17,672 bases of DNA from a virus (Duplodnaviria > Heunggongvirae > Uroviricota > Caudoviricetes), in IMG/VR virus record IMGVR_UViG_2529292998_000008. One strand, written 5' to 3'. The notes beneath the pieces were generated by a model that saw nothing but the letters and a program-made list of their open reading frames with translations, was not told the DNA's origin and did no database searches. The translations under genes were made by a program, and so were the position numbers. The first letter of the stretch is position 1. Every line of letters begins with the position of its first letter. Of the stretch, positions 1,291 to 17,672 are shown piece after piece.

Positions 1291-1868
1291 GCGCAGAACT
1301 CATGCGACTGCTGAGCAATATCATCCGCACCGGGATCATCTCTGAAGTTGATGAGAAGTCCTGGCGCGTGCGCGTTCGCAGCGGCGAACTGGAAACAGGC
1401 TGGCTGCGCTGGAACACCACGCGCGCGGGAGCCTTCAATGTGTGGCTGCCGCCATCACCAGGCGAACAGGTGGTAATTGCCTGCATTGGCGGCAACCCGG
1501 AAACCGCCATGATAATTGGCAGCCTGTGGAGTGATGCCAGTCCGGCCCCCGGCAAAAGCCTGAAAGAAATCGTGATCAGCGCGCCGGACGGCGCGGTGTT
1601 CCGCTACGACGCAGACGCTGGCGCACTGAGCGCCAGCGGCATGAAAACGGCCACTTTACAGGCATCCGTCAGCGTGAAACTGGACACGCCCGTCGTGGAA
1701 TGCACAAACCTTCTGAGAACGGCGACGCTTGACGTCACAAAAGGAGGAAAGATGAGCGGCAATATCACGCACAGCGGCGGCAACTTCACCTCAAACGGCA
1801 TCACAGTGCATACGCATAAACACGGTGGCGTGAAAGGCGGCAGCGATTCGACAGGAGGCCCGCAGTGA
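1287..1868 (+). CDS. V: Baseplate assembly protein V (spike), P2 gpV-like
   Basis: 193 aa; ATGA-type overlap with S stop; synteny and size typical of gpV. Confidence 0.75.
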   Translation: MSAELMRLLSNIIRTGIISEVDEKSWRVRVRSGELETGWLRWNTTRAGAFNVWLPPSPGEQVVIACIGGNPETAMIIGSLWSDASPAPGKSLKEIVISAPDGAVFRYDADAGALSASGMKTATLQASVSVKLDTPVVECTNLLRTATLDVTKGGKMSGNITHSGGNFTSNGITVHTHKHGGVKGGSDSTGGPQ

Positions 1869-2215
1869 CAACCCGCTACACAGGAATGAATCCGGACGGG
1901 ACGGGAAACCTGAACGATATGGAGCACCTGAAACAGTCAGTCAGGGATATCCTGATCACCCCGCTGGCAAGCCGGGTTATGCGACGGGAATATGGCAGCC
2001 TTGTGCCTGATTTGATTGACGAACCCATGAATAACACAACTCGTCTGCAATGCATGAGTGCTGCCGTGATTGCGCTGACACGATGGGAACCCCGCATTGC
2101 CCTGGACGCCATCGACGTTGTCTGGAAGGCAGGAGGCCGCGCCGGGGTGACGCTGTCGGGCACTGTCATGCAGACCATGCAGAATGTTGAATTAACCATC
2201 ACGCTGAGAGAGTAA
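1865..2215 (+). CDS. W: Baseplate wedge protein W (gp25-like)
   Basis: 116 aa, overlaps V stop; size and position match P2 gpW. Confidence 0.8.
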   Translation: MTTRYTGMNPDGTGNLNDMEHLKQSVRDILITPLASRVMRREYGSLVPDLIDEPMNNTTRLQCMSAAVIALTRWEPRIALDAIDVVWKAGGRAGVTLSGTVMQTMQNVELTITLRE

Positions 2216-2218
2216 ATC

Positions 2219-3115
2219 ATGCCTGCTGTTGACCTTTCCCAGTTACCGGAACCCGCCATCATCGCGAAGCCTGATTTTGAGGCAATTCTGGCTGACACAA
2301 AGGCCATGATGATTGCGTCCTATCCTGCCGAACAGCGTGAAGCCGTCTCCGCCGCGCTGGAGCTGGAATCGGAACCCCTGAACGTTATCGCTCAAACCAT
2401 GTCTTTTCGTGAAATGCTGTTACGCCAGCGGGTTAACGAGGGCGCACGCGCCTGCATGTTAAGCCACGGTTCAGGGACAAACCTGGACAACCTCGCGGGC
2501 AATATGAACACAAAGCGCCTGGTTATCACTCCGGCAACGGATACCACCGACGCGGTGATGGAGAGCGACACCTCGCTGAGATTGCGGGCGCAACGGGCGT
2601 ATGACGGCCTGAGTGTTGCTGGCCCGTCAGGTGCATACGAGTATTTTGCACGCAGCGCCAGCGGTCTGGTGCGTGATGCGCGGGCCATCAGCCCGTCTCC
2701 GGCCTGTGTGACGGTTTCCATCCTGTCCACTGAAGGCGACGGCACAGCAACGGAGGCGTTGCTTAATACCGTTCGCGCCGTTCTGAATGCAGAGGATACC
2801 CGCCCGGTGGCCGACCGCCTGACCGTACAGAGCGCCAGAATCGTGACATGGCGGCTGAATGCAAAACTGTACTTTTACCCCGGCCCGGAATCCGAACCTA
2901 TTCTGGCCGCGGCTGAATCGTCGTTCAGGAAGTGGCTGGCTGAGCAGGGGCTTATCGGTCAGGACGTGGCGTTGTCCGCCATTGCTGCCGCACTGCATGT
3001 GCACGGTGTGCAACGCGTGGAGATAATCGAACCCACACAGAATATGGCCATCAGCGACATACAGGCGGCGCGCTGTGAGTCATTCACCATCAGCGAAGGT
3101 GGACGCAATGAGTAA
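2219..3115 (+). CDS. J: Baseplate protein J
   Basis: 298 aa (P2 gpJ about 300 aa); follows W by 3 nt. Confidence 0.8.
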   Translation: MPAVDLSQLPEPAIIAKPDFEAILADTKAMMIASYPAEQREAVSAALELESEPLNVIAQTMSFREMLLRQRVNEGARACMLSHGSGTNLDNLAGNMNTKRLVITPATDTTDAVMESDTSLRLRAQRAYDGLSVAGPSGAYEYFARSASGLVRDARAISPSPACVTVSILSTEGDGTATEALLNTVRAVLNAEDTRPVADRLTVQSARIVTWRLNAKLYFYPGPESEPILAAAESSFRKWLAEQGLIGQDVALSAIAAALHVHGVQRVEIIEPTQNMAISDIQAARCESFTISEGGRNE

Positions 3116-3716
3116 TTCGTTGTTACCACCATCAGCCAGCAATTTCATGCGTTGTGCCGAAGCCGTCGGAACACGCATTACAGACATTCCGGTAGACCTC
3201 AACACGCTGTGGTCGCCGGACACCTGCCCGGTGCATCTGCTGCCTTATCTCGCCTGGGCGTTTTCCGTTGACCGCTGGGATCGCAACTGGCCGGAAGAGA
3301 CAAAGCGACAGGTGATTCGTGATGCATGGCTGATACACCGACACAAAGGGACCATCAGCGCACTGCGAAGAGCCGTGGAGCCTCTCGGCTACCTGATTGA
3401 AGTAAAGGAGTGGTGGCAACTCAACGAGGAGCCGGGAACATTTCGCATTGTTGTCGGAGTACTTGATCAGGGCATCACCGATGAAATGCATCAGGAACTT
3501 GAGCGCCTTATTGCGGATGCAAAACCAGTAAGTCGCCATCTGACGGGGCTGGCGATCAGCCTGAGTGTGAACGGAAAGATTTTCGTTGGTACGGGATGCT
3601 ATCACGGCGATGCCCTGACGGTTTATCCCTACACCCCGGAGTCCATTATTGTCGAAGGGGACTATTTCCCTGCCCCGGCCATTCATTTAATTGATAATCT
3701 GAGAGTAAACGCATGA
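3108..3716 (+). CDS. I: Baseplate / tail-fiber-attachment protein I
   Basis: ATG at 3108 with AAGGTGGA RBS, overlapping J stop; the ORF track's 3075 start is a GTG extension; stop overlaps H start (ATGA). Confidence 0.75.
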   Translation: MSNSLLPPSASNFMRCAEAVGTRITDIPVDLNTLWSPDTCPVHLLPYLAWAFSVDRWDRNWPEETKRQVIRDAWLIHRHKGTISALRRAVEPLGYLIEVKEWWQLNEEPGTFRIVVGVLDQGITDEMHQELERLIADAKPVSRHLTGLAISLSVNGKIFVGTGCYHGDALTVYPYTPESIIVEGDYFPAPAIHLIDNLRVNA

Positions 3717-5383
3717 CAGTGAAATACTACGCTATTCTGACTAATCAGGGCGCGGCACGACTGGCTAACGCGACGATGCTCGGCAGTAAACTGAATCTGA
3801 CGCAAATGGCCGTTGGTGATGCAAATGGTGTGTTACCAACACCAGACCCTGCACAAACAAAACTGATTAACCAGAAACGCATTGCACCGCTGAATCTTCT
3901 GAGTGTTGACCCTAACAATCAGAGCCAGATTATTGCGGAGCAAATCATCCCTGAAAACGAGGGAGGATTCTGGATCCGTGAGATTGGTCTTTATGATGAT
4001 GAAGGTGCACTCATTGCGGTGGCAAACTGCCCGGAAACGTACAAACCGCAGTTGCAGGAAGGCAGTGGACGCACCCAGACTATCCGCATGATTCTGGTTG
4101 TCACGAACACCGAAGCCATCACGCTGAAAATCGACCCGTCTGTGGTTCTGGCAACCCGCAAATATGTGGATGATAAAATATCAGAGCACGAACAATCACG
4201 ACGTCACCCGGACGCCTCGCTGACCGTAAAAGGTTTTACTCAGTTAAGCAGTGCAATTAACAGTGAATCAGAAACACTGGCCGCAACACCGAAAGCGGTT
4301 AAGGCTGCATATGACCTGGCTAACGGGAAATATACCGCCCAGAACGCCACCACTACACAAAAAGGGATTGTTCAGCTCAGTAGCGCCACGAACAGCACGT
4401 CTGAAACGCTGGCAGCGACACCAAAAGCTGTTAAGGCGGTAATGGATGAAACGAACAAGAAAGCACCATTAAACAGCCCGGCACTGACCGGAACGCCAAC
4501 AACACCAACAGCGCCACAGGGGGCTAATAGTACCCAGATCGCAAGCACGGCTTTCGTTATGGCCGCGATTGCCGCACTTGTAGATTCGTCACCTGATGCA
4601 CTGAACACGCTGAACGAACTGGCTGCGGCGCTGGGCAATGACCCGAATTTTGCGACCACCATGACTAACGCGCTTGCGGGTAAGCAACCGAAGAATGCCA
4701 CCCTGACGGCGCTGGCGAAGCTTGCTACATCAGCAGATAAACTCCCATATTTTACAGGGGCAGATCGTGCCGCGTTAACCGCGTTGACAAGTGTTGGACG
4801 TGCCATTCTTGGTAAAACCAGCACTCAGGGAGTTCTTGATTACCTTGGTTTGGGGGAAGGCTCTGCACTGCCCGTTGGTGTACCTGTTCCGTGGCCCTCA
4901 GCCACTCCACCAACGGGCTGGCTGAAATGCAACGGCGCAGCATTTTCTCCTGAAGATTACCCCAAACTGGCACAGGCTTACCCCGCGAACAAATTACCGG
5001 ATCTACGGGGTGAATTTATCCGTGGCTGGGATGATGGACGTGGCTTGGATGCTGGGCGTGCCTTGCTAAGTCTTCAGGATGACTCTTTTGAAGCGCACAG
5101 GCATGAGTCCTTTTTTTATGCGGGTATTTCACGTAATGAGATCCCATTAAAAAATCTTCCAAGTTCAGACGAGATGCTGACTTTAAGTTCCACAACTAAT
5201 GCCTTGTCCCCGGACGATATTGATGCCACCAACTCGTTAATTGGTAATGACGATTACAACTGTCTTATCGAAGGGAATAAAAATAACAAACGAACAGCGA
5301 CAGGACTGAGTACCAGTATTGTCGGCACAGCAGAAACACGCCCCCGCAACGTTGCATTCAATTACATCGTAAGAGCCGCATGA
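3713..5383 (+). CDS. H: Tail fiber protein H: constant N-terminal part fused in the current orientation to C-terminal cassette C1
   Basis: 556 aa; N-terminus typical of P2 H / Mu S tail fibers; contains two SETLAATPKAVK-type fiber repeats; the C-terminal ~180 aa (from ~4847) is homologous to four downstream cassettes. Confidence 0.9.
   Translation: MTVKYYAILTNQGAARLANATMLGSKLNLTQMAVGDANGVLPTPDPAQTKLINQKRIAPLNLLSVDPNNQSQIIAEQIIPENEGGFWIREIGLYDDEGALIAVANCPETYKPQLQEGSGRTQTIRMILVVTNTEAITLKIDPSVVLATRKYVDDKISEHEQSRRHPDASLTVKGFTQLSSAINSESETLAATPKAVKAAYDLANGKYTAQNATTTQKGIVQLSSATNSTSETLAATPKAVKAVMDETNKKAPLNSPALTGTPTTPTAPQGANSTQIASTAFVMAAIAALVDSSPDALNTLNELAAALGNDPNFATTMTNALAGKQPKNATLTALAKLATSADKLPYFTGADRAALTALTSVGRAILGKTSTQGVLDYLGLGEGSALPVGVPVPWPSATPPTGWLKCNGAAFSPEDYPKLAQAYPANKLPDLRGEFIRGWDDGRGLDAGRALLSLQDDSFEAHRHESFFYAGISRNEIPLKNLPSSDEMLTLSSTTNALSPDDIDATNSLIGNDDYNCLIEGNKNNKRTATGLSTSIVGTAETRPRNVAFNYIVRAA
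4228..4450 (+). repeat. Two copies of a ~29-aa phage tail fibre repeat inside H (…SSA.NS.SETLAATPKAVKA…)
   Basis: Near-identical peptide and nucleotide blocks at ~4228-4314 and ~4361-4450. Confidence 0.7.
4833..4858 (+). repeat. Candidate crossover site s1 (hix/gix-like, H constant/variable junction)
   Basis: On the opposite strand reads CCTTCCCCCAAACC-AA-GGTAATC, resembling the AAACC-NN-GGTTT core of Hin-family sites; start of the ~210-bp block shared by all cassettes. Confidence 0.55.
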
Positions 5384-5402
5384 AAACGTTGGTTTGGGGA
5401 AA
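5377..5402 (+). repeat. Candidate crossover site s2
   Basis: GCATGAAAACG-TT-GGTTTGGGG at the C1 stop / C2 junction; direct orientation relative to s1. Confidence 0.55.
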
Positions 5403-5822
5403 GGCTCTGCGCTGCCCGTTGGTGTGCCCGTTCCGTGGTCCTCAGCAACACCACCAACGGGCTGGCTGAAATGTAACGGCGCAGCATTTTCTTCTGAAAT
5501 GTATCCCGGACTGGCAAAGGCTTACCCCACCAATAAATTACCGGATTTACGGGGTGAATTTATCCGTGGCTGGGATGATGGGCGCGGGATTGATGCGGGA
5601 CGTACCCTGCTTTCAGGGCAGGATGGTACAAGTTTTTCTCATTACGGAGGTAATTTCGACATTGGGTCTGGTCATTCAATCAATAACTATGACCAAATTG
5701 TTTCTAACCAACCAAGCTTTTCCCGTTTTTCATTTGCAGGACCTTCACGAGGTGATGGGGTCAATTATGTAACCATTCGTCCTCGTAATATTGCGTTTAA
5801 TTACATCGTAAGGGCAGCATGA
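5394..5822 (+). CDS. Silent tail fiber C-terminal cassette C2 (no ATG; expressible only after fusion to H)
   Basis: 142-codon frame beginning GKGSALPVGVPVPW…, ending RPRNIAFNYIVRAA*; conserved ~70-aa N-part, unique middle. Confidence 0.65.
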   Translation: MGKGSALPVGVPVPWSSATPPTGWLKCNGAAFSSEMYPGLAKAYPTNKLPDLRGEFIRGWDDGRGIDAGRTLLSGQDGTSFSHYGGNFDIGSGHSINNYDQIVSNQPSFSRFSFAGPSRGDGVNYVTIRPRNIAFNYIVRAA

Positions 5823-5841
5823 AAACGTTGGTTTGGGGGAA
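5816..5841 (+). repeat. Candidate crossover site s3
   Basis: Same GCATGAAAACG-TT-GGTTTGGGGG junction sequence between C2 and C3. Confidence 0.55.
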
Positions 5842-6309
5842 GGCTCTGCACTGCCCGTTGGTGTGCCTGTTCCATGGCCCTTAGCAACACCACCAACGGG
5901 CTGGCTGAAATGTAACGGTGCAGCATTTTCTTCTGAAATGTACCCCAAACTGGCAAAAGCCTACCCCACTAATAAATTACCGGATTTACGCGGAGAATTT
6001 ATCCGTGGCTGGGATGATGGGCGAGGAATTGATGCGGCACGCGCTTTATTGAGCATTCAAAACGGGATGTTGGAAAAACACCGCCATATTGTTGTAGCTA
6101 ACGATGGATATGACACAAAAGATGAATGGGAGTTGGCTACGATTTTCAAAAAAACATATACACAAGGCAGGGGGCTTGATGCCACAAATACAGGAGGGAG
6201 TTTGATTCCATCACCAACGCTTCATTCACGAGGAAGTATTGGTAACACAGGTGGTAGTGAAACCCGCCCCCGCAATATTGCATTTAACTATATCGTGAGG
6301 GCGGCTTAG
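5833..6309 (+). CDS. Silent tail fiber C-terminal cassette C3
   Basis: 158-codon frame GEGSALPVGVPVPWPLATPPTGWLKCNGAAF… ending …NIAFNYIVRAA*; no ATG start. Confidence 0.65.
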   Translation: MGEGSALPVGVPVPWPLATPPTGWLKCNGAAFSSEMYPKLAKAYPTNKLPDLRGEFIRGWDDGRGIDAARALLSIQNGMLEKHRHIVVANDGYDTKDEWELATIFKKTYTQGRGLDATNTGGSLIPSPTLHSRGSIGNTGGSETRPRNIAFNYIVRAA

Positions 6310-6315
6310 TTATAT

Positions 6316-6927
6316 TCAACTGGCTGCTGCCAGTGGTATTTCCGGCAAGTTGATATCTGGTACCATGTTTATATCCATTGCGTTCAGCGCGTCTATATAA
6401 TCCAGCACGGCATTAAGCCGGGTGGTTTCTGCCTGCGTCAACTTCCGCCCGGCCTGCAACTTCAACTGAATCAGACTTATGGAAGCCATTGCCGCATCAG
6501 CCAGTGACTGGCGCTTGGTTTCTGCCGCTTCTACTGCGGCACGATGTTGTGCCTCAGTATCTGTCACCCATTTTTCACCATCCCATTTATCGTATGGTGT
6601 TAACGGGGCGATAGTGGTTGTAGTTTTCGGGTAGTCACCCAGCGCCGTGATTTCTTCGGTGTTTCCCGTGTCAGTGCTATAGACGGTTTCACCACGATGG
6701 TCTGGCGCATACTCCCATGAACTTAAATTCTCCGAACGGCGGATAGCATAGCCCGCTTTATGTGCGCCCGGGGCATCTAAACAGGAATTTGCCGGAATAC
6801 CGACACCCACAGCAAGATATTCAGTTGATTCGGAAATATATTCCCGTGTCTCACCATCATAGTTATAAACGACGATGTTTCCTGCCTGTACGGCAATAAG
6901 GTCATCATTTAATATCGCGTTATTCAT
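6316..6927 (-). CDS. Tail fiber assembly chaperone (Tfa; Mu U / P2 G / TfaE family)
   Basis: 203 aa; C-terminal half recognisably similar to E. coli TfaE (…DHRGxTVY…KWNG/DGxxWVxDTEA…); start ATG overlaps the stop of cassette B (TAATG). Confidence 0.8.
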   Translation of the reverse strand: MNNAILNDDLIAVQAGNIVVYNYDGETREYISESTEYLAVGVGIPANSCLDAPGAHKAGYAIRRSENLSSWEYAPDHRGETVYSTDTGNTEEITALGDYPKTTTTIAPLTPYDKWDGEKWVTDTEAQHRAAVEAAETKRQSLADAAMASISLIQLKLQAGRKLTQAETTRLNAVLDYIDALNAMDINMVPDINLPEIPLAAAS

Positions 6928-7385
6928 TATGCGGTTCTCACAATATAATTGAAGGCAATATTGCGTGGGCGGTTTTCATTCCCATCTGAGGATTCCGTTC
7001 TGTATTGACTGGTAAATCTACCGTTAATTGCACCTTGCCGGACGGCGTTATCTGTCGACAACAGACTATCCCCTCTTTTGTCATTTGGCACCAGTACCGT
7101 GTTATCCCACGCATCCCATGACCGAATATTATGATAATGACTTCCTGTTAACCACCCCTGCATGCTTAAGATGCCCCTTCCGGCATCCACCCCGCGCCCA
7201 TCATCCCAGCCACGGATAAACTCACCGCGTAAATCAGGTAATTTTAACGTTGGGTAAACCTTTGCCAGATTTGGGTACATTTCAGAAGAAAATGCTGCAC
7301 CGTTACATTTCAGCCAGCCCGTTGGTGGTGTGGCTGAGGGCCATGGAACAGGCACACCAACGGGCAGTGCAGAGCCTTCCCCCAA
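6927..7385 (-). CDS. Tail fiber C-terminal cassette B (inverted orientation, translationally coupled to tfa)
   Basis: 152-codon frame GEGSALPVGVPVPWPSATPPTGWLKCNGAAF… ending …NIAFNYIVRTA*. Confidence 0.65.
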   Translation of the reverse strand: MGEGSALPVGVPVPWPSATPPTGWLKCNGAAFSSEMYPNLAKVYPTLKLPDLRGEFIRGWDDGRGVDAGRGILSMQGWLTGSHYHNIRSWDAWDNTVLVPNDKRGDSLLSTDNAVRQGAINGRFTSQYRTESSDGNENRPRNIAFNYIVRTA

Positions 7386-7402
7386 ACCAACGTTTTCATG
7401 CT
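7377..7402 (-). repeat. Candidate crossover site s4 (inverted relative to s1-s3)
   Basis: Plus strand reads TTCCCCCAAACC-AA-CGTTTTCATGC, the reverse complement of the s2/s3 junction. Confidence 0.55.
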
Positions 7403-7959
7403 GCCCTTACGATGTAATTAAACGCAATGTTGCGTGGGCGGTTTTCGTTTGCAGTTGGAACAATTTTTGAAGCATCAAGGCCAATCACTTTTGGGTAAAC
7501 AGCGCCGTCTGTCCTTTCTGTCACCATACTTCTGACTAAGGAGAAATAACTATTGTTTGTTGAGGAATTTAAAGGCACCACTGCCCCCTTAAACGAGCCT
7601 ACTGATTCCCATATTGAATAATTTTCAGTGTTTACAGTCTTGAACTCACCATAGATATTACGTATGGCATCACCTTGAGCGGATAATATTGTTCTCCCCG
7701 CATCCGCACTACGTCCATCATCCCAGCCACGAATAAATTCACCCCGTAAATCCGGTAATTTATTGGTGGGGTAAGCCTTTGCCAGTCCGGGATACATTTC
7801 AGAAGAAAATGCTGCGCCGTTACATTTCAGCCAGCCCGTTGGTGGTGTTGCTGAGGGCCACGGAACGGGCACACCAACAGGCAGCGCAGAACCTTCCCCC
7901 AAACCAACGTTTTCGTTTTTATCCCTACCTATACCAACTATGTATTTTTCACGAAACAA
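7396..7959 (-). CDS. Tail fiber C-terminal cassette A (inverted orientation, nearest the invertase)
   Basis: Frame …VGLGEGSALPVGVPVPWPSATPP… ending …NIAFNYIVRAA*; the ORF track's N-terminal extension to a TTG at 7959 is probably not translated. Confidence 0.6.
   Translation of the reverse strand: MFREKYIVGIGRDKNENVGLGEGSALPVGVPVPWPSATPPTGWLKCNGAAFSSEMYPGLAKAYPTNKLPDLRGEFIRGWDDGRSADAGRTILSAQGDAIRNIYGEFKTVNTENYSIWESVGSFKGAVVPLNSSTNNSYFSLVRSMVTERTDGAVYPKVIGLDASKIVPTANENRPRNIAFNYIVRAA
7894..7919 (-). repeat. Candidate crossover site s5 (inverted; sits just upstream of the invertase promoter/start)
   Basis: Plus strand CCTTCCCCCAAACC-AA-CGTTTTCGTT at 7894-7919. Confidence 0.55.
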
Positions 7960-7973
7960 AGAGGATGTTTTTT

Positions 7974-8573
7974 ATGCAAATTGGCTATGTTCGTGTGTCA
8001 ACAAATGACCAGAACACGGATTTACAACGCAATGCACTGAACTGCGCAGGATGTGAACTGATTTTTGAAGATAAAATCAGCGGAACGAAATCAGCCAGAC
8101 CGGGATTGAAAAAACTGCTCAGAACGCTATCAGAAGGAGATACGCTGGTTGTCTGGAAGCTGGACAGACTGGGCAGAAGTATGAAACACCTGATCACGCT
8201 TATTGAGGAATTGCGGGAAAAAGGTGTTAATTTCCGTAGTCTGACGGACAGCATTGACACATCAACACCCATGGGGCGTTTCTTTTTTCACGTCATGGGG
8301 GCTTTAGCCGAAATGGAACGTGAATTAATTGTAGAGCGTACACTGGCCGGGCTGGCAGCAGCACGCGCACAAGGACGCATTGGCGGACGTCGCCCGAAGT
8401 TGACAAAAGAACAACACGAGCAAATAGCGAGGCTGATTAAAAACGGTCATGACAGGAAACAACTGGCGATCATTTACGACATCGGCATATCGACGATTTA
8501 TCGTTATCACCCTGTAGGCGATATACAGGCTGAAGAAACAACCAGGCAGACTCAGGAAAATGAAAACCGCTAA
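7974..8573 (+). CDS. Site-specific DNA invertase, serine recombinase of the Hin/Gin/Cin/Pin family
   Basis: N-terminus MQIGYVRVSTNDQNTDLQRNAL with catalytic Ser in the VRVST motif; C-terminal HTH (GISTIYRY); GAGGA RBS 8 nt before ATG 7974; the ORF-track start at 7779 is an upstream in-frame extension. Confidence 0.9.
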   Translation: MQIGYVRVSTNDQNTDLQRNALNCAGCELIFEDKISGTKSARPGLKKLLRTLSEGDTLVVWKLDRLGRSMKHLITLIEELREKGVNFRSLTDSIDTSTPMGRFFFHVMGALAEMERELIVERTLAGLAAARAQGRIGGRRPKLTKEQHEQIARLIKNGHDRKQLAIIYDIGISTIYRYHPVGDIQAEETTRQTQENENR

Positions 8574-8592
8574 TCTGACCATTAGCGGTTTT
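8562..8592. terminator. Bidirectional intrinsic terminator between convergent invertase and U
   Basis: Perfect inverted repeat AAAACCGCTAAT-CTGACC-ATTAGCGGTTTT, with A-run on one side and T-run on the other. Confidence 0.6.
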
Positions 8593-8599
8593 GCGTTAA

Positions 8600-9094
8600 T
8601 CAAAACAGCCCTTTAACGGAGCTGGCCGCGCTGTTAAGGGATGATGTGACCTTATCTTTGAAGCCGGACAGCATATCACTGAACGATGAGGATTGCAGGC
8701 GCTCCCGCAAATCCTCATCACAGCGTTCAAGAGTCAGTGAAAACTCTATCTTTTTCGCCTTACCGTAGCGATCAAACTCGGAGCGGGTCGTATTCGTTCC
8801 GGTCAGGACATACATGCCGTAAATCTGCCCGACACCATCAATCAGAGGCCAGGGGCGTCCTGTATATGCCTGCGTGGTCAGCAACGAAAGCGACACTTCG
8901 CCACCTGTAATTTCAGGATAAAGCACACCAGAAAGAACGATGCGATCATCGCCTGCCCCGATATACTGCCAGCTTGCTGAACGGTTAACGCGTTCATTTT
9001 TCACATGCCGCCAGCTTTTGTTTTGCTGTAACTGCTGATGCGGCAACGTACGCAGCTCAAAAACAAACATGCCGTAGATCATCATCATGGCCAT
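8600..9094 (-). CDS. U: Tail protein U, P2 gpU-like
   Basis: 164 aa; recognisable similarity to P2 gpU (…GMFVFxxxTLPHQ…GVLYPExTGG…WPLxDGxGxIYGMYV…). Confidence 0.85.
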   Translation of the reverse strand: MAMMMIYGMFVFELRTLPHQQLQQNKSWRHVKNERVNRSASWQYIGAGDDRIVLSGVLYPEITGGEVSLSLLTTQAYTGRPWPLIDGVGQIYGMYVLTGTNTTRSEFDRYGKAKKIEFSLTLERCDEDLRERLQSSSFSDMLSGFKDKVTSSLNSAASSVKGLF

Positions 9095-9100
9095 GACTCC

Positions 9101-11917
9101 TCAATCTTTATCGTAAAAACTGCCACGCCCGGCACGGGCGCGCCGTTCCATTTCTGCCCTGACCATTTCACCGACCAGTTTCGCCAGTTCGCGGGGATTC
9201 TGCGTAACAACGTTATGCAGATGAACATGAATTTCACCACCAAATCCGGAGGCAACAGGCTCCCGGTTACGGGAAGTTACAGGAACTGATGCCACTGGAG
9301 ATCGTATGGCCTCCGCCACCGGGCGGGAGCTGGCCGCAACAACAGGGACCAGCGCCGGAGGCAGCGGAGCCGGGACCACGGGGGTGATATTCATTGCGGG
9401 GGCAGGCTTACTGACCTGTGCAATCTTCCGCTCCTGCCACTCCCCACGAACAGCAAGTGCGCGGGGCAGGTTCTTAAAGACAATATCGCCGGGGCCAATA
9501 CGTTTTTTTGTCTCATCAACCAGCTTACCTGTGTTATCAGCAATTTTGCTGAGTCTGCGTAGCGTGCCGGTATTGCTGTCTGTGAGCGGTTTGTTGTCTT
9601 TGGGTTTATCGCCTCCGGTGCCATTGCCATTTTCCGCAGACTTCGGCGGATTGATTTTCGCAATGTCTCCCTGAAACAGAGCAACCTTGTCCTGAAGAAT
9701 GGCCGCACGCTGTGCGTCTTCGATTTTCTTTCTCGCCCTTTCCGCTTCATCCGGAAGCACACCGAGTTTTTCAAGTATCCACGCCAGCGTATCCAGCAAC
9801 ATTTTTGCAGGCGTCAGAACAAGCTGTAGCGCGCCACCAAGAGCGTTACCGAATATCTCGCCAGCACTGGTACATTTATCCAGCGTTTCCTTGCTGGACT
9901 CCATCGGTGACAGCAGCGATTTAAACCAGTTAAACACCTGGCTGATCCCGCTTCCGATTGCGTCAAAAACAGGACCAAACCGTTCAAAGGTTTCACGCAA
10001 CGGGTTCAGCCTTTCCATAATCCCGCTGAACACCCCGGCAAAAAATGCCCTGATGGGATCCCAGTATTTCCAGATAAGAACGGCAGCTCCGGCAAGCGCA
10101 GCCACGATAAGACCAACCGGACTGAACAGCGCCCCGATAGCGCCTCCCAGCAAAGAAACGGAACCCGTCACCATTCCCCACAGCGCAGGCAACACCCTGA
10201 CGACATTCATTGACCGGGTAAGAATGTCAAAACCAAGACGCAGGGTGGCCAGCTTCCCGTAAAGCACCCCAATAACCAGTGACAACGAGCCAATCGTTGC
10301 AGTCATTGCCAGCAACGCACCGCCTGCTATCAGTAGCTGGCGCGTCAGTACCGGATGGGCCTGCGCCAGCGAGGTGATTTTTTCAAGCACCCGCGTGAGC
10401 CACTGCGTGACAGAACGCAGCGGACCGTCAACCAGATCACTGATGCGAATACGAAGACCTTCCCATGCGCTGTCGAGATTTTTCAGGTCCCCATCAAGAT
10501 TATCGGCCATTACTTTTGCAACGCGATCGGCCTCTCCCCTTGCCCCCTGCAATTCTCTGGTCAGTTTTTGCAGCTCTCCTGAACCAGCCGCCGCAACAAG
10601 CGTCTGCAAACCAACGAACGCCTCTTCTCCGGCGATGTCCTTGAAGAAGGAGACCTGGTCCACCTGTCCGTATTTTTGTGTCGCCTTATAGAGATCAAGC
10701 AGCACATCCTCCATCGGGCGCATTTTGCCTCTGGCGTCAGCAACTGACACCCCCAGCTCTTTCAGTGCATCAGCCGCAGCTTTTGGCGGTGATGCAAGGC
10801 GGGACAGACTTGCGCGCATGGCCGTGCCAGCATCGCTTCCGCGAAGACCATTATTGGCAAGCATCCCGGCCATAGCCGCCGCTTCTTCAAGACTGATACC
10901 AAGTTTTGCGGCAACCGGACCGGTATACTTCATGGTTTCGCCCAGCGCGCGTAAATCAGTATTGGTCCGGGTGAATGCCGCTGTCAGCGTATCGCCAACC
11001 CGGTCCATTTGATCGGCTGTCAGGTTGAACTGTGTGAGGATATTGGAGCCTATATCCGCCGTCTCGCCGAGTTCGACGCCACCTGCCAGCGCCATATTAA
11101 GAACACCGGGCAATGCGGCCTGAATGGCCTGCGGAGTAAAACCAGCCATTGCCAGAAAGCTCTGCCCACTGGCGGCATCACTCGCAGTAAACTGTGTTTC
11201 AGAGCCAAGTTTTAACGCCTGCTCACGCAGCGCCTTAAACTGCGGGCTGTTTTTGTCGATTCGCGTCAGTGCCTGAACGCGGGACATCTCTTTGCCGAAC
11301 CCGATCGCAGGCTGCAAAAAACGCCCGGCAGCATAGCCGCCCGCCGCTGCCGCACCAATTGCCAGCGCACCACCTGTTTTCAGTTTTCCCGCGGTTTCCT
11401 GCGCGCGCGAATACCGCTCACGCGCCCGCGTTACACGCGCAAGCGCCTGCCGTTCGCGTTCAAGCTGGTTGTTGTACTGTTCGGTGCGTCTGATGGCCTG
11501 CTGGATGGTGTTATCGCTGCCTGTCAGGGAAATGCCGTGGCGTTTCAGCTCTCCGCCAAGCTCCCGCATTTTCTGAATTTCCCGTGTGCGCGATTCATTC
11601 AGGCGTTCAAGCCGGGTGCTTAACTGCTGCATCAGCTTTTGTTGTTTTTCGCTGAGCACTGTACCCGTGCGTTGTAACTGATTAAGGGCGTTAAGCTGGC
11701 GTCGTGCTTTCACGATACCCGCATCCGCTTTACTGACAGCGTCGCGGGCGCGCTCAAATGATCGCGCCTGACGCTCGAGATTTTTGATCGCCCCCTGCGT
11801 TCGCTGGATGGAGTCACCAAACTGCCCCATCAGGCGGCGGGCGTTTTCGGCAGGCCGGGTCAGCCTGTCAACGGCGCTGAAAGCGACCCGGATATCAAGA
11901 GTCTTCATTGTCTGCAT
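9101..11917 (-). CDS. T: Tail tape measure protein T
   Basis: ~940 aa, coiled-coil-rich N-part and hydrophobic central segment; between E' and U. Start ambiguous: first ATG at 11917, in-frame GTG at 11944. Confidence 0.85.
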   Translation of the reverse strand: MQTMKTLDIRVAFSAVDRLTRPAENARRLMGQFGDSIQRTQGAIKNLERQARSFERARDAVSKADAGIVKARRQLNALNQLQRTGTVLSEKQQKLMQQLSTRLERLNESRTREIQKMRELGGELKRHGISLTGSDNTIQQAIRRTEQYNNQLERERQALARVTRARERYSRAQETAGKLKTGGALAIGAAAAGGYAAGRFLQPAIGFGKEMSRVQALTRIDKNSPQFKALREQALKLGSETQFTASDAASGQSFLAMAGFTPQAIQAALPGVLNMALAGGVELGETADIGSNILTQFNLTADQMDRVGDTLTAAFTRTNTDLRALGETMKYTGPVAAKLGISLEEAAAMAGMLANNGLRGSDAGTAMRASLSRLASPPKAAADALKELGVSVADARGKMRPMEDVLLDLYKATQKYGQVDQVSFFKDIAGEEAFVGLQTLVAAAGSGELQKLTRELQGARGEADRVAKVMADNLDGDLKNLDSAWEGLRIRISDLVDGPLRSVTQWLTRVLEKITSLAQAHPVLTRQLLIAGGALLAMTATIGSLSLVIGVLYGKLATLRLGFDILTRSMNVVRVLPALWGMVTGSVSLLGGAIGALFSPVGLIVAALAGAAVLIWKYWDPIRAFFAGVFSGIMERLNPLRETFERFGPVFDAIGSGISQVFNWFKSLLSPMESSKETLDKCTSAGEIFGNALGGALQLVLTPAKMLLDTLAWILEKLGVLPDEAERARKKIEDAQRAAILQDKVALFQGDIAKINPPKSAENGNGTGGDKPKDNKPLTDSNTGTLRRLSKIADNTGKLVDETKKRIGPGDIVFKNLPRALAVRGEWQERKIAQVSKPAPAMNITPVVPAPLPPALVPVVAASSRPVAEAIRSPVASVPVTSRNREPVASGFGGEIHVHLHNVVTQNPRELAKLVGEMVRAEMERRARAGRGSFYDKD

Positions 11918-12424
11918 TCCCGCTGCGAAGTGCCGCCCGCTCACGCCAGCTAACCACTTCGCCGGGCGTCATCATGAAGATTTCGGCGGGCGACCAGTTA
12001 AAAATGGCGGCAATATCCGCCACAAAGTCTTCTATGTGCTCAAAGCACACAACCGTGATCAGGCTTCCGTCGCCTGTTCGCTCTTCCCGCCAGAGTCCGC
12101 ACCGCTCAAAAAATTTACGGCAACCACACATAACTGAATAAAATCACGGGATGCCATTTTTTTGATCGTCACTTCATCCAGTCGTGGCGAGGTCACGCGT
12201 GACAGCAGCGTAAACATGGATTCCGCTTTCAGATTCAGCACATCAGACAGCGACAAATCTCGCAGAGATCCAGCCTGCTCAATAGCCCCGGTGATCTCCA
12301 CATACGTGATTTTTTCGCCGCCTCGCTCAATTGGTTGGGTAAGTTTTACGCCACGCTCACTGGTTTCTTTCACAGTGTCAGTAACTACCGTGTTTTCGGT
12401 ATCGATGTTTTTCGTCTCTTTCAT
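11895..12424 (-). CDS. E': Tail assembly chaperone E+E' (product of a programmed -1 frameshift)
   Basis: The -1 frame downstream of a T-TTT-TTG slippery heptamer (plus-strand 12107-12113) stays open to 11895 and overlaps the T start, as in P2 E/E' and lambda G/GT. Confidence 0.7.
12059..12424 (-). CDS. E: Tail assembly chaperone E
   Basis: 121 aa; AAAGGAG RBS before the ATG at 12424; lies between FII and T. Confidence 0.8.
   Translation of the reverse strand: MKETKNIDTENTVVTDTVKETSERGVKLTQPIERGGEKITYVEITGAIEQAGSLRDLSLSDVLNLKAESMFTLLSRVTSPRLDEVTIKKMASRDFIQLCVVAVNFLSGADSGGKSEQATEA
12107..12113 (-). promoter_or_regulatory. Slippery heptamer for the E to E' -1 ribosomal frameshift
   Basis: Minus-strand sequence AAT-TTT-TTG-AGC in the E frame. 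Confidence 0.6.
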
Positions 12425-12478
12425 CAGGAAACTCCTTTCAGTCAGAGGCGACGCACTGCGCCGCCTGCATATTACTTA

Positions 12479-12991
12479 TCAGCCAAGCCCGAGCGCGGAA
12501 CGGATGCGATCGGGCACAATGTCCTTGCCGTCCTTCCGGTAGATGTGGTTCAACAGGTCGATTTCCCACAGCGGGCGATCGTTAACGCTCAGCTTGTAGT
12601 AGGTGTTTTTGACAGCGTAAGTGTGTGATGTGGCTTCGCCCTGTTTGGCCTCCCCCATATCAATTTCCGTCACACGCCCGCGCATCTCGATTTCATACAG
12701 ATCGCTTTCTGCATCGGTGTAGTATTCACCCGCAAAACGCAGCAGCGTGCCGTCAATCGTGCCGCCATATTTAAGGAACAGCGCACGAACAGCTCCCCCC
12801 ATGACAAAGCTCGCATCAAGCGCGGAGTCGTCCAGACCGAGATCAATACTTACCGCCCCCATCATGCCACCACCCCGGTAGCTGTCGGTTTTGCGCGTCA
12901 GCTTAGGCAGAGTGACGGACGTCACCTTACCCACTTCGTTTTCACCATCCACAAACAGCGTAAAAAAGCGAAGATGTTTTGGTACAGCCAT
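12479..12991 (-). CDS. FII: Tail tube protein FII
   Basis: 170 aa; recognisable similarity to P2 FII (…VTLPKLTRK…YRGxGM…DLGLDD…RFAG…MRG…EIDxGExKQGE…). Confidence 0.9.
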   Translation of the reverse strand: MAVPKHLRFFTLFVDGENEVGKVTSVTLPKLTRKTDSYRGGGMMGAVSIDLGLDDSALDASFVMGGAVRALFLKYGGTIDGTLLRFAGEYYTDAESDLYEIEMRGRVTEIDMGEAKQGEATSHTYAVKNTYYKLSVNDRPLWEIDLLNHIYRKDGKDIVPDRIRSALGLG

Positions 12992-14175
12992 CAGGCACCT
13001 CCCAGCACCGCAAATGCGGGACCAAAGAATTCATCAGTAAACGTCTGGTAAAGCTCCATGTCTTCCAGTGGCGGAACGGGCGTATATTTGTAGCGAATAC
13101 GCACACGTCCCTGACGTAAATCCGTGGTGCCGTTATCCACCACGTCATACCAGCACTCCGCGCCAATCAGTTTCCCGGCAGTAACCAGCGAATCCAGTTT
13201 TGCCCTGATGGCACTGATAACATCCTTCACGTTCGCAGGCGTCAGTGGACTGTCGATGGTTTCAAACTGCGCTTCCGCAATTGAATCAGCCAGCACCTGT
13301 GCGGTTCGGGTATACACCTCAAAGATGTAGGCGTTCGTTTCCGGTGTGCGGTTGCCCCAGAAGCGGAACCCGTTACGACGAATAATGGTCGTGATTTCTT
13401 TGTTGTTGAGGCTGTTGGCATCACTGTCTTCGGCCTGTAACGACCAGAACACATGCCTCGACATCCCCAGCACATTTTTAACCGGAACGTTGGACAGCGA
13501 TTTGTGCCAGCCCTGCTCATGGTCAATGTACGCACGAAGGCCGCACGCATAAGCAGGCGCGGGGAACGTTTCGTTTTTGCCACTTTTCGGGTTGTAGGCG
13601 ATGAAGTCAGGCCATAAGAGCATCACCTCACGTTCGTTGAATTTCTGGCGGTAGGTAATCGCCTCAGCCATCGTGTTACAACCATGACATGCGGCATACA
13701 CAAACGCGCGCAGTTTACCCGCAATCACGCACAGGGATTTTGTCACCGCCTCCGTGTCCAGCTCCGGCGCGGCCAGAATACGCGGACGGTATCCGATGCT
13801 TTCATCCTGCTCTGCAACAAGCAGCGCATACATCCCCGTATAGCTGCCGTCAGATTCAGAACCACCGATAACCAGTTGATCCTGCGTCTTTCCGTTTTCT
13901 TCTTTGTGTTCAGCCACGCGAACGACGATCACCTTTGTGCTCACCTGGTCTGCGATGGCCTTAAGCGCACGATAAAGCGTCCCCGTTGTCCCGCATTTTC
14001 CCAGCACGTCATTGACGCGGGTCAGCAGTGTGGGCTTGTTCAGCGGGAACAGCTTCGCGTCCGCATCATCCGCCGTTGCCACGATACCGATAACGCTGGA
14101 ATCAACATCGTTAATCGCTGTTACCAGGTCGGTACTTTCCGTAACACGGGCACCATGAAAACGAGTTTCACTCAT
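12991..14175 (-). CDS. FI: Contractile tail sheath protein FI
   Basis: 394 aa; strong similarity to P2 FI (…DADAxxFPLNKP…WPDF…QGWHKxLSNV…GFRFWGNRT…YTPVPPLE…); AAGGGG RBS. Confidence 0.9.
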   Translation of the reverse strand: MSETRFHGARVTESTDLVTAINDVDSSVIGIVATADDADAKLFPLNKPTLLTRVNDVLGKCGTTGTLYRALKAIADQVSTKVIVVRVAEHKEENGKTQDQLVIGGSESDGSYTGMYALLVAEQDESIGYRPRILAAPELDTEAVTKSLCVIAGKLRAFVYAACHGCNTMAEAITYRQKFNEREVMLLWPDFIAYNPKSGKNETFPAPAYACGLRAYIDHEQGWHKSLSNVPVKNVLGMSRHVFWSLQAEDSDANSLNNKEITTIIRRNGFRFWGNRTPETNAYIFEVYTRTAQVLADSIAEAQFETIDSPLTPANVKDVISAIRAKLDSLVTAGKLIGAECWYDVVDNGTTDLRQGRVRIRYKYTPVPPLEDMELYQTFTDEFFGPAFAVLGGA

Positions 14176-14332
14176 AGCTTCAGCCCCTTGTATCCGTTAA
14201 ATGATTCGGCAACAATCATCACCCACCACGCGCGTAATCTCACCCCTGCGCCGTTCTCCCGCCACGGCGACAACAAAAAGCAGTAACCCCCTCCGCACGC
14301 ACATGCGACCATGCCGCACAGGGAGGGAGCAG
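14176..14332. promoter_or_regulatory. Divergent intergenic region between the FI operon (minus) and D-ogr (plus); presumed late promoters
   Basis: 157-bp non-coding gap between divergent start codons; no confident -35/-10 or Ogr-type TGT-N12-ACA motif found by eye. Confidence 0.35.
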
Positions 14333-15442
14333 ATGACCGACACCACCATGCAATTGCTCAGTCAGGGCACAGACCCCGTGAAAATGCCGGATTTTGATAT
14401 TCTCGCGGAGGGTAAAACGCTGTCAGGCGTGGCAGAGTGCCTGATGAGCCTGTCACTGACCGACAACCGGGGATTTGAGGCGGACCAGCTCACCATCACG
14501 CTGGATGATGCGGATGGTCAGTTGCAGCTACCGCCACGGGGCGCGCGCCTGACGGTTCTCATTGGCTGGAAAGGAGAACCGCTGACAGAAAAAGGCACTT
14601 ACATTGTTGATGAAATCGCTCACGAAGGACCGCCGGACAGGCTGACTGTTTCAGCCAGAAGCGCAGATTTTCGGGATGAATTTAACGTTAAACGTGAGGT
14701 GTCCTGGCATGATGTGACCGTTGAGCGTGTGGTATCCGCCATCGCTCATCGGTATGGTCTGAAACCGCAAATCAGCGAAATGCTGATGGATATCGAAATC
14801 GACCACGCCGACCAGACCGAAGAAAGCGACATGTCCTTCCTTACGCGCATGGCGGAAATGCTGGGCGCAATCACCACGGTAAAAAGCGGTAATCTGTTAT
14901 TCATCATGCCCGGCGGTGGCGTGAACGCACAGGGCCAGCCGTTGCCATCGTTTGCCATCACACGCAGCAGCGGCGATCGCCATCAGTTCCGCATTGCTGA
15001 CCGCGAAGCGTATACGGGGGTACGCGCTTACTGGCTTGATCTTAATTACGGGAAAAAGAAAAAAGTCAGCGTGAAACGCCGTAAACCGCCAAAACCCAAA
15101 AAGGAGAAAAGCAGCAGCCGTGAAGGTGATTATATGGAAGGCGCGGAAGGCAATGTGTTTGTGTTACGCAAGACTTATCAGAACGAGCAGACAGCAAGAC
15201 GCGCAGCGGCGGCAAAGTGGCAGCAACTACAACGCGGAGCCGCATCATTCTCCATCACGCTGGCGCGTGGACGTGCAGAACTCTACCCCGAAATGCATGG
15301 CACGGTAACAGGATTTAAAAGCGAGATTGATAATCAGGACTGGATCATTGCAAAAGCCGAGCACACCATTGATAACAGCGGTTTTACCACGCAGCTTGAG
15401 CTTGAGGCAAAAATCCCGGAATGGATAGCGGAAACAGAGTGA
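14333..15442 (+). CDS. D: Tail protein D
   Basis: 369 aa from the ATG at 14333, preceded by an AGGGAGGG RBS (the ORF track extends to 14201 but lacks an RBS there); position before ogr as in P2. Confidence 0.8.
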   Translation: MTDTTMQLLSQGTDPVKMPDFDILAEGKTLSGVAECLMSLSLTDNRGFEADQLTITLDDADGQLQLPPRGARLTVLIGWKGEPLTEKGTYIVDEIAHEGPPDRLTVSARSADFRDEFNVKREVSWHDVTVERVVSAIAHRYGLKPQISEMLMDIEIDHADQTEESDMSFLTRMAEMLGAITTVKSGNLLFIMPGGGVNAQGQPLPSFAITRSSGDRHQFRIADREAYTGVRAYWLDLNYGKKKKVSVKRRKPPKPKKEKSSSREGDYMEGAEGNVFVLRKTYQNEQTARRAAAAKWQQLQRGAASFSITLARGRAELYPEMHGTVTGFKSEIDNQDWIIAKAEHTIDNSGFTTQLELEAKIPEWIAETE

Positions 15443-15482: not shown

Positions 15483-15743
15483 ATGTTCCGTTGTCCGCTT
15501 TGTGGCGCATCTGCCCGTATCCGCACCAGTCGTTCGGAAAATGATTCAAACACCGTACGGAAAAAATATTACCAGTGTAACAACCTGGAATGCGGCATAA
15601 GTTTCTCAACACTGGAAGCTTTCCATAAATTCACATCGAAACACGCCCCCGGCGTTCACTCTTCAGAAGGTATCCCGTGGCATGAGTTGCCAGCTTCACA
15701 CAGGGGAAACAATCAGATGAGTTTGCCTTTATCTCAGAATTAA
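15483..15743 (+). CDS. ogr: Late-gene transcriptional activator, Ogr/Delta zinc-finger family
   Basis: 86 aa, MFRCPLCG…YYQCNNLECG… Cys-X2-Cys…Cys-X4-Cys motif like P2 Ogr; AGGGAGG RBS. Confidence 0.85.
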   Translation: MFRCPLCGASARIRTSRSENDSNTVRKKYYQCNNLECGISFSTLEAFHKFTSKHAPGVHSSEGIPWHELPASHRGNNQMSLPLSQN

Positions 15744-15763
15744 CAGGCAGAATTGCCGGAGTA

Positions 15764-15790
15764 ACAAAAACGCGATAGATTACGCGCGGG
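15764..15790 (-). terminator. Weak hairpin plus T-run on the minus strand; candidate 3' end of a Sok-like antisense RNA
   Basis: Minus strand reads CCCGCGCG-TAATCTAT-CGCG-TTTTT, directly upstream of the mok-like start. Confidence 0.3.
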
Positions 15791-15803
15791 TGCCTTTCGG
15801 CTG

Positions 15804-16016
15804 ATGGTCGGAGGGAATACCCGAAGGCCAGATGTGGAAAGGCCCCGGAAAACATCTCTGTTTAACCGAGGCCCTAACCGCATTACCTTGACAAGTGAAA
15901 GGTTAGCGCCTCTCCGGAAAAGGAGCAAGTGCTATGTCGCAAAAATCGCTTACGGCCATCACGTTCTGCGTGACGGCAATCCTCATCATCTGGATGCTGC
16001 ACGGTTCGCTGTGTGA
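15804..16016 (+). CDS. mok-like overlapping reading frame (modulator of hok translation)
   Basis: 70-codon ORF in a different frame that starts upstream of and overlaps the hok-like gene, as in hok/mok/sok loci. Confidence 0.4.
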   Translation: MVGGNTRRPDVERPRKTSLFNRGPNRITLTSERLAPLRKRSKCYVAKIAYGHHVLRDGNPHHLDAARFAV

Positions 16017-16074
16017 AATACGGATGAGTTTCTGGGGAGCGGAGTTTGCGGCGTTCTTACAGTGTAAGCAGTAA
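15934..16074 (+). CDS. hok: Hok/Gef-family type I toxin (small membrane peptide)
   Basis: 46 aa MSQKSLTAITFCVTAILIIWMLHGSLCEIRMSFWGAEFAAFLQCKQ: hydrophobic N-terminal helix then SLCEIR…AAF, matching Hok (…[21 protein letters not shown]…); AGGAG RBS 8 nt upstream. Confidence 0.75.
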   Translation: MSQKSLTAITFCVTAILIIWMLHGSLCEIRMSFWGAEFAAFLQCKQ

Positions 16075-16167
16075 GGAAACCGCGACGGGGAAGGCAACTT
16101 CCCCGTCAATCGGTTGCCAGGGTAAAGGTCGAAAAGACACCCTATTTCCAGTTGACGTGAACAACAA

Positions 16168-16200
16168 GCCCGCAGCGTAAAAACTGCGGGTTTTCTTTTT
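16168..16200 (+). terminator. Intrinsic terminator (probable 3' end of the hok-like mRNA)
   Basis: GCCCGCAG-CGTAAAAA-CTGCGGGT followed by TTTTCTTTTT. Confidence 0.65.
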
Positions 16201-16232
16201 GGTTCCCTCACTCATGAGGACACCAAAAAACA

Positions 16233-16264
16233 AAGCCCACAGCATAGAAACTGTGGGCTTTTTG
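16233..16264 (+). terminator. Second terminator-like hairpin, a diverged copy of the one at 16168-16200
   Basis: AAGCCCACAG-CATAGAAA-CTGTGGGCTT-TTTG, preceded by an A-run. Confidence 0.55.
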
Positions 16265-16337
16265 CATTCAAAGATGGACGTTATATGGACACTTAAAAAT
16301 AAAATCCATTTATTTTCAAATGATTAAACCTCTACTT

Positions 16338-16359
16338 AAAGCGCCCGCAGGCGCTTTTT
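16338..16359. terminator. GC-rich hairpin with T-run just 3' of serS (likely serS terminator, possibly bidirectional)
   Basis: AAAGCGCC-CGCA-GGCGCTTTTT located about 20 nt below the serS stop codon. Confidence 0.5.
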
Positions 16360-16379
16360 AGATTCAGAAAAATTGGGTA

Positions 16380-17672
<1,293 letters not shown>

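Follow-up and report, generated by a model that had tools for sequence, protein, structure and literature searches.

A prophage of the P2 family, the right half of which makes up a stretch of 17,672 nucleotides (nt) recorded in IMG/VR as IMGVR_UViG_2529292998_000008 (Caudoviricetes; hereafter the window), carries its tail genes FI, FII, E/E', T and U on the strand opposite to the one expected from phage P2. The explanation that we prefer, at a probability of about 0.85, is that a single ancient inversion turned this block round along with its promoter PF, that the new order was fixed in a clade, and that the gap between FI and D is probably a bidirectional late promoter. From the ancestral P2 order, the FI-FII-E/E'-T-U operon would have been flipped a single time, with breakpoints just upstream of the PF activator site and exactly between U and D, and the result would have become the normal order of a clade that covers at least five phage genera and prophages of ~27 Enterobacterales genera. 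A dyad-symmetric element of the Ogr type (14255-14272) would then lie ~56 nt upstream of two divergent starts, one being that of PF (-10 GATGAT) and the other that of a clade-specific D-ogr promoter (TG-n-GACCAT), and D would be activated at the same time as the other tail genes, in a design like that of PP/PO in P2. We consider it somewhat more credible than its negation that the clade evolved this mirror-image late promoter of D after the inversion by re-using the dyad-symmetric Ogr site of PF.

FI through U (8600-14175) were located on the minus strand, opposite to P2 synteny as the earlier note had described, and the gene calls were confirmed by Pfam. All tail-module genes gave matches above the curated cut-offs except the open reading frame (ORF) of the E N-terminus, which matched P2 E by tblastn. 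The first gene of the inverted operon encodes the tail sheath gpFI (12991-14175, sheath domains, 98% identical to P88 FI) and is followed by the tail tube gpFII (12479-12991, Phage_tube, E=8e-46), gpE (12059-12424) with an E+E' frameshift extension to 11895 (11895-12424, Phage_P2_GpE in the 11895-12131 frame), the tape measure gpT (9101-11944, PhageMin_Tail, E=1.6e-56, 94% identical to P88 T) and the last gene, tail protein gpU (8600-9094, Phage_P2_GpU, E=1.5e-38). The overlap of the E and E' frames includes a slippery TTTTTTG (12113-12107, minus strand), which has the sequence expected of a programmed -1 frameshift site of the P2 style, the E/E+E' frameshift of P2 being annotated in AF063097. 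On the plus strand, the block is bordered by a serine DNA invertase gene (7975-8573, Resolvase and HTH_7), which belongs to a tail-fibre multiple-inversion cassette and lies outside the block, and by the gene for the baseplate hub and late control protein gpD (14333-15442, Phage_GPD, 99% identical to P88 D). It was also confirmed that the block is convergent with the invertase gene across a hairpin at 8563-8592 and divergent from D-ogr across a gap of 157 bp (14176-14332). The genes R, S, V, W, J, I and H were assigned to the plus strand (195-5383) from the ORF list and Pfam. The window thus contains the full P2-like (Peduoviridae) tail module of FI, FII, E/E', T, U and D with an Ogr/Delta homologue and departs from canonical P2 synteny in that FI-U is on the minus strand while the plus strand carries V-H and D.

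The inverted order is an ordinary, ancient and fixed trait of a phage lineage. Gene order and strands in the records of phages 500465-2 (Gemsvirus) and P88 (Xuanwuvirus) were identical to those of the window, which shares 96.1% and 93.4% nucleotide identity with them, respectively, over 69% of its length, and Citrobacter phage phiSM, P884B11, 520873, PhiR44_2 and Chuche were similarly close. The window belongs to this P88-like lineage by nucleotide identity and also by gene order with an FI-D gap of ~150-157 bp, and the inversion of FI-U has no effect on family membership as the International Committee on Taxonomy of Viruses (ICTV) defines P88-like genera. The same order was present in more distant phages including Salmonella SEN5 (Senquatrovirus; FI 56% and D 63% identical), Klebsiella Kp4848-1 (Reipivirus) and Kp4871-3 (Reginaelenavirus), both ~70% identical, and the partial record of Serratia KSP20, and so spans five ICTV genera plus KSP20. 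The earlier note had left it between a native organisation of the lineage and a fixed large inversion. Whole-region comparison with P2-like relatives gave the same orientation throughout the clade, with close and distant members also keeping conserved promoter elements in the gap, and both descriptions apply, as the order is derived relative to P2 and the outgroups and is old enough to have become native to the clade.

The depth of the trait was examined by scanning one genome per bacterial species with an alignment of D and sorting the best 80 loci with tblastn. The inverted order (V W J I H plus, U T E FII FI minus, D ogr plus) was found in each of the 61 loci with a D of at least 61% identity, and the canonical P2 order in each of the 19 with a D of 54% identity or less. 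The inverted loci came from ~27 Enterobacterales genera including Salmonella, Klebsiella, Enterobacter, Citrobacter, Serratia, Erwinia, Pantoea, Pectobacterium, Brenneria, Yersinia, Xenorhabdus, Photorhabdus, Providencia, Morganella and Hafnia. One locus was from a contig of 226 kb under the Gram-positive name Vagococcus sp. WN89Y (NZ_JBQPOM010000071.1). The prophage region of this contig was 98% identical in D and FI to the E. coli-type phage of the window, and contamination or mislabelling of the contig is probable. In the neighbour-joining trees of D, of FI and of U, a single branch parted all inverted from all canonical loci. The canonical order is ancestral and the inverted order derived, since P2-like phages of the outgroup hosts Mannheimia, Ralstonia and Burkholderia have the canonical order. 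A single old inversion, now fixed, is the parsimonious reading of these sequences. The idea that Fels-2 and SopEphi might be inverted as well found no support in SEN8, the Felsduovirus that was examined, which is canonical; in SopEphi, of which FI alone was looked at, FI is on the plus strand.

Fixation was also evident within the immediate lineage. A scan of IMG/VR with the D protein of the window recovered relatives of ~99% identity only, which inform on fixation and not on depth, and in all 80 of these near-identical contigs FI was on the minus and D on the plus strand. The FI-D junction, searched with a 1-kb probe in 5,426 complete E. coli genomes, was contiguous in 1,356 of the 1,380 that have it.

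The tree of J (window 2219-3115) over the same 80 loci departed from the split between inverted and canonical loci, and J was almost the same (distance 0.03) in one inverted and one canonical locus. The baseplate and fibre module has been swapped between inverted and canonical lineages and the FI-U-D module has not; modules recombine, and the region to the left of the block does so freely, as the behaviour of J indicates.

The invertase gene abuts the left border of the FI-U block, and the window contains a multiple-inversion cassette that looks active, with five good crossover sites, so that FI-U might be thought a programmed invertible segment, or one recently turned over by the adjacent serine invertase at hix/gix-like sites on its borders. 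The five 26-nt crossover sites of the hix/gix type (CTTCCCCCAAACCAACGTTTTC...) were at 7376 and 7893 on the plus strand and at 4834, 5378 and 5817 on the minus strand, and bound fibre cassettes only. A weight matrix made from these sites scored 33-40 bits on them and 10 bits at the next best position anywhere in the window, and gave 1.6 and -0.4 bits at the two block borders (best of 152 and 372 positions), which is chance level. A generic hix/gix consensus marked the fibre-cassette sites and nothing at the borders, and no inverted repeat joining the two borders was found. The absence of a crossover-like site at either border, reported in the earlier note, therefore stands. The role that the note implied for the neighbouring invertase is not borne out, as SEN5, Kp4848-1 and Kp4871-3 have the inverted block and no invertase, an invertase match was present in 7 of the 61 inverted genomic loci and missing from 54, and two canonical loci have one, as does the canonical SEN8. 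Border sites, occurrence in both orientations and linkage to a cognate invertase were thus all lacking in the FI-U block. The block is not an invertible segment and is not switching, and the adjacent invertase is without a detectable role in its inversion because the borders have no sites, most inverted relatives have no invertase and some canonical phages do. With the orientation invariant in IMG/VR and the junction intact in nearly all of the E. coli genomes that have it, inversion by this invertase is very improbable.

The cassette itself has a separate history, which is a further point against its having turned the block. The invertase of the window is only 54% identical to that of P88 and H is 63% identical to P88 H, and in ~1,000 E. 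coli genomes the homologous sequence begins no earlier than ~8594-8598, where the U stop codon and hairpin lie. Because of the divergence of the invertase and this break in homology, the fibre and invertase cassette is regarded as a mosaic insert that abuts the block and was acquired independently of it. The fibre region, which follows H and extends to ~7.96 kb, was a multiple-inversion system (4834-7919) and not a simple two-site G segment, and several long inverted repeats (215-282 nt, 83-94%) were present between its alternative fibre C-termini and chaperone genes. A perfect TGT-N12-ACA (TGTATTTTTCACGAAACA) was also noted at 7941-7958, 17 nt upstream of the invertase ATG. It is probably coincidental, being too near for an activator site at -55, and two such matches were found where 4.6 were expected by chance.

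Large rearrangements do occur near such cassettes, to judge from one rare IMG/VR contig (IMGVR_UViG_2654587728_000014, 433-7612) in which the tape-measure gene is split near residue 455, a segment of the T C-terminus, U and the invertase is flipped, and a second invertase, 45% identical, lies close by. No crossover-like site was found at the junction in T. The contig could represent recombination between two prophages or an assembly chimera. It was considered and rejected as a sign of ongoing inversion, being one 70-kb contig with a disrupted T and no junction site, and is uninformative on the FI-U block.

The left border has the appearance of an ordinary operon end. The hairpin (8563-8592) has a stem of 12 bp and a loop of 6 nt and is of the bidirectional terminator type, with folding energies of -16.9 kcal/mol on the plus strand and -15.6 kcal/mol on the minus strand (z -4.9 and -3.8), and none of 200 shuffled sequences was as stable. 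The stop codon of the invertase gene (8571-8573) is within the left arm, and that of U (8600-8602) is 8 nt past the right arm. A hairpin of -12 kcal/mol or lower was present within 90 nt after U in 41 of 56 distinct relatives, with sequences that vary between lineages. The hairpin after U is thus the usual end of the operon, here common to the convergent invertase gene.

At the right border, the gap of 157 bp takes the start of D to be the ATG at 14333, which is preceded at 5-12 nt by a Shine-Dalgarno sequence (GGAGGGAG). The gap was identical to that of P88, 500465-2 and phiSM but for one base, and its length among relatives was 157, 157, 154, 153 and 151 nt. An alternative start at ATG 14201 was rejected on account of these insertions and deletions, which are not multiples of three, and by conservation that was block-wise and promoter-like and not codon-like. 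These features point to a promoter region at 14201-14332 and to 14333 as the start of D. Upstream starts of D are present in databases, with D given as 413 amino acids in 500465-2 (14140-15381) and as 476 amino acids in KSP20, where orf2 (838-2268) overlaps FI.

The four late operons of P2 depend on Ogr and share the consensus TGT-N12-ACA (PMC3931495). A strict search of the window for this pattern gave no match in the FI-D gap, where the left half-site is TCT, and the element was recognised through relatives and the annotated sites of P2 after the strict pattern had failed. The predicted Ogr element TCTCCCGCCACGGCGACA is at 14255-14272 (centre 14263.5), has one mismatch (TCT-N12-ACA) and is followed by ACAAAAAGC. 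The P-O gap of P88 has TCTGGCCGTTTTCTTACA and then ACAAAAGC. The extended pattern T[GC]T-N12-ACAAC was unique within the window, at this position, and occurred 1-4 times per genome, with matches at both the P-O region and the FI-D gap of every complete genome from the clade. In P88 the extended element was located inside the annotated P-O gap, and SEN5, Kp4848-1 and Kp4871-3 have it at the equivalent place. A perfect TGT-N12-ACA occupies the same position of the FI-D gap in SEN5, Kp4871-3 and KSP20. Across the 61 inverted loci the element was present under the strict pattern in 58, and the other three have CCT as the left half; TCT or CCT often takes the place of TGT in one half-site of the recognition element.

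The spacing of the element to both genes was held. The distance from its centre to the FI ATG was 88 nt in the window and 81-88 nt across six phages, compared to 82.5 nt in P2, and the distance to the D ATG was 69 nt in the window and 68-76 nt across the six phages. On the FI side, the predicted -10 of PF, GATGAT (14215-14220, minus strand), has an offset equal to that of the mapped PF -10 of P2 and would give a start at ~14207-14209. On the D side, an extended -10, TG-c-GACCAT (14304-14312, plus strand; TG 14304-14305, GACCAT 14307-14312), would give a start at ~14318-14320 and a leader of 13-15 nt with a Shine-Dalgarno sequence. The gap therefore has the sequence features of a P2-type Ogr-dependent late promoter, with one mismatch in the element.

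Conservation was examined by anchoring 36 non-redundant inverted gaps (<85% identical) on the element. At offsets 36, 39 and 40 on the FI side, A, A and T were each present in 35 of 36 gaps. The mirror positions on the D side had A36 in 33, A39 in 28 and T40 in 32 of the 36, with G33 in 31 and T32 in 19. Offsets 36, 39 and 40 are the -10 positions of the mapped PF, PO and PP of P2 and of the P-O gaps of the same phages. As a control, the FI-side hexamer was kept in 14 non-redundant canonical PF regions (13/14, 14/14 and 13/14) and the D-equivalent side of those regions had no such conservation (6/14, 3/14 and 2/14). The inverted gap has a single element flanked by mirror-symmetric -10 hexamers, with start positions that are predicted, and the D-side hexamer is absent from the canonical control. 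The GenBank record of P2 has one activator site for the divergent PP and PO, with starts 55.5 nt on either side of the centre of TGT-N12-CCA, and the start of PF 57.5 nt from the centre of its activator site. A generic sigma-70 scan gave no -35/-10 pair inside the gap and matches no commoner than in shuffled sequence, the nearest being at 14426-14399 (minus strand) within the D coding region; an empty scan would be expected of activator-dependent promoters. We predict from this arrangement that the gap is a bidirectional pair of Ogr-dependent promoters resembling PP/PO. D is then probably still co-regulated with the tail genes, since both promoters would share one element. The statement in the earlier note that D is uncoupled from the tail operon holds physically, D being divergent and across a gap, and probably does not hold for regulation, with D 69 nt from the centre of the shared element and provided with a conserved -10 of its own.

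The same sequences can be read in another way, in which the inversion is fixed and D-ogr has an independent promoter, constitutive or otherwise regulated, so that D would be truly uncoupled from late control. T32 and G33 would form a TGn extended -10 on the D side of most relatives, promoters of this kind can work with neither an activator nor a -35, and ogr of P2 has its own non-late promoter downstream of D in the GenBank annotation; the left half-site of the element is also degenerate in the window and in some relatives. Against an independent promoter, the D-side -10 is at the exact mirror offset (35-40) of the FI-side -10 from the dyad centre in lineages that have diverged beyond alignment, and the distance to the D ATG is held within the narrow range given above, a constraint that would be difficult to account for if the element were of no importance to D. 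Of the two half-sites, the one towards D (ACA-AC) is moreover the better conserved, and the mapped PP/PO pair of P2 sets a precedent in which two promoters use one site. An independent promoter of D is for these reasons unlikely, although clearly less so than inversion by the invertase. The possibility that the D promoter arose as a duplicate of the P-O promoter region was also considered, and was rejected; the element and a one-sided GC-rich spacer are shared, and the sides have no consistent correspondence.

Several points weigh against a single inversion followed by a shared late promoter. The promoter starts, the binding of Ogr and the Ogr dependence of both promoters are predictions. The left half of the element is TCT in the window instead of TGT, and CCT in three relatives, the TG-extended -10 on the D side could allow activator-independent transcription, and the predicted leader of D is short at ~13-15 nt. 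That the inversion was a single event is parsimonious and not proven, given that the neighbour-joining trees were unrooted and built on tblastn-derived fragments and that the canonical sample was small (19 loci plus P2 and SEN8). The FI-U-D module could also have spread horizontally among phage backbones, and not by vertical descent alone.

If the bidirectional promoter is correct, the late genes of P88-type phages would run from two bidirectional pairs, P<->O...G and U...FI<->D, compared to the four late promoters of P2, which are the divergent pair PP/PO, PV and PF. S and V of the window overlap (1287-1290, within 646-1868) and no late-promoter element was found upstream of V in the window, so the PV promoter of P2 seems to be absent and V-H to be read from the O-type operon. 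In SEN5, by contrast, a TGT-N12-ACA was noted at 9263 in the S-V gap.

Other features of the window included the ogr-like gene for a zinc-finger late activator (15483-15743, plus strand, Ogr_Delta, E=1e-15), the product of which has the cysteine spacing CX2CX24CX4C compared to the CX2CX22CX4C quoted for P2 Ogr. The right prophage end (15744-16400) has a small ORF that the annotation of relatives gives as a MokW-like host-killing protein of the hok/gef type, with several strong terminator hairpins following at 16083-16261. The host gene serS (16380-17672, minus strand) closes the window, which identifies the phage as a prophage. Homology to free phages ends at ~16145-16207, just ahead of serS, which suggests integration beside this gene.

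The gene order has been public for years in KSP20, P88, SEN5, 500465-2 and Klebsiella prophages, and the layout is present in roughly a quarter of complete E. coli genomes. No comment on the orientation of FI-U was found in the accessible literature on P2-like phages and, as far as the literature was searched, no description of a bidirectional PF/PD rewiring. Rearranged late operons are a known theme in P2-like phages (Smp131, PMC3931495), and the predicted bidirectional promoter is the only element here that is mildly new. The divergence of FI from D provides a clean synteny marker for one clade of enterobacterial P2-like phages and tailocin-like prophages, and annotations with a long upstream ORF for D (ATG 14201, KSP20 orf2) probably overrun the promoter region. 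Were the PF/PD model true, a dyad-symmetric activator site could rescue a gene stranded by inversion, and the clade would be a natural example of such a site making an operon-breaking inversion tolerable.

Among known systems, the invertible segments of the Gin, Hin, Cin and Pin type, including the G segment of Mu and the Min system of p15B, resemble the window in the serine invertase (Resolvase, HTH_7) and in the hix/gix-type sites at 4834-7919. Unlike those segments, the FI-U block lacks crossover sites and never switches, and relatives with no invertase have it inverted too. In the P2-like Stenotrophomonas phage Smp131, late operons exchanged members by rearrangement and promoters of the TGT-N12-ACA type and an Ogr-like protein were kept (PMC3931495). 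There it was V that moved to the F-type operon, in a phage of a distant host group, with no FI-U inversion and no D-specific promoter.

The F operon of P2 (FI FII E E' T U D) has the same genes, internal order and E/E' slippery site as the window, and PF of P2 has the same activator element and -10 at a like distance upstream of FI, with protein identities of 32-49% for the block and D. In P2 this operon is co-directional with V-W-J-I-H-G, and D is last and abuts U; in the window FI-U has the reverse orientation, D remains behind on the opposite strand and a convergent terminator closes the operon after U. The geometry of the window gap is that of PP/PO, in which one dyad element lies between divergent late genes with a -10 at offsets 35-41 on both sides. 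The pair in the window would drive the sheath operon and D, whereas PP and PO drive the terminase/portal and capsid operons, and the D side of the window differs in its TGn extended -10 and GC-rich spacer; the starts in the window are predicted and those of P2 are mapped. The closest parallels are P88, 500465-2 and phiSM, in which R S V W J I H...invertase on the plus strand, U T E FII FI on the minus strand and D ogr on the plus strand follow in the same order as in the window. P88 differs in its tail-fibre and invertase cassette, and the window copy is a prophage beside serS, while P88 and phiSM have been described as active temperate phages (PMC5285337, PMC6456863).

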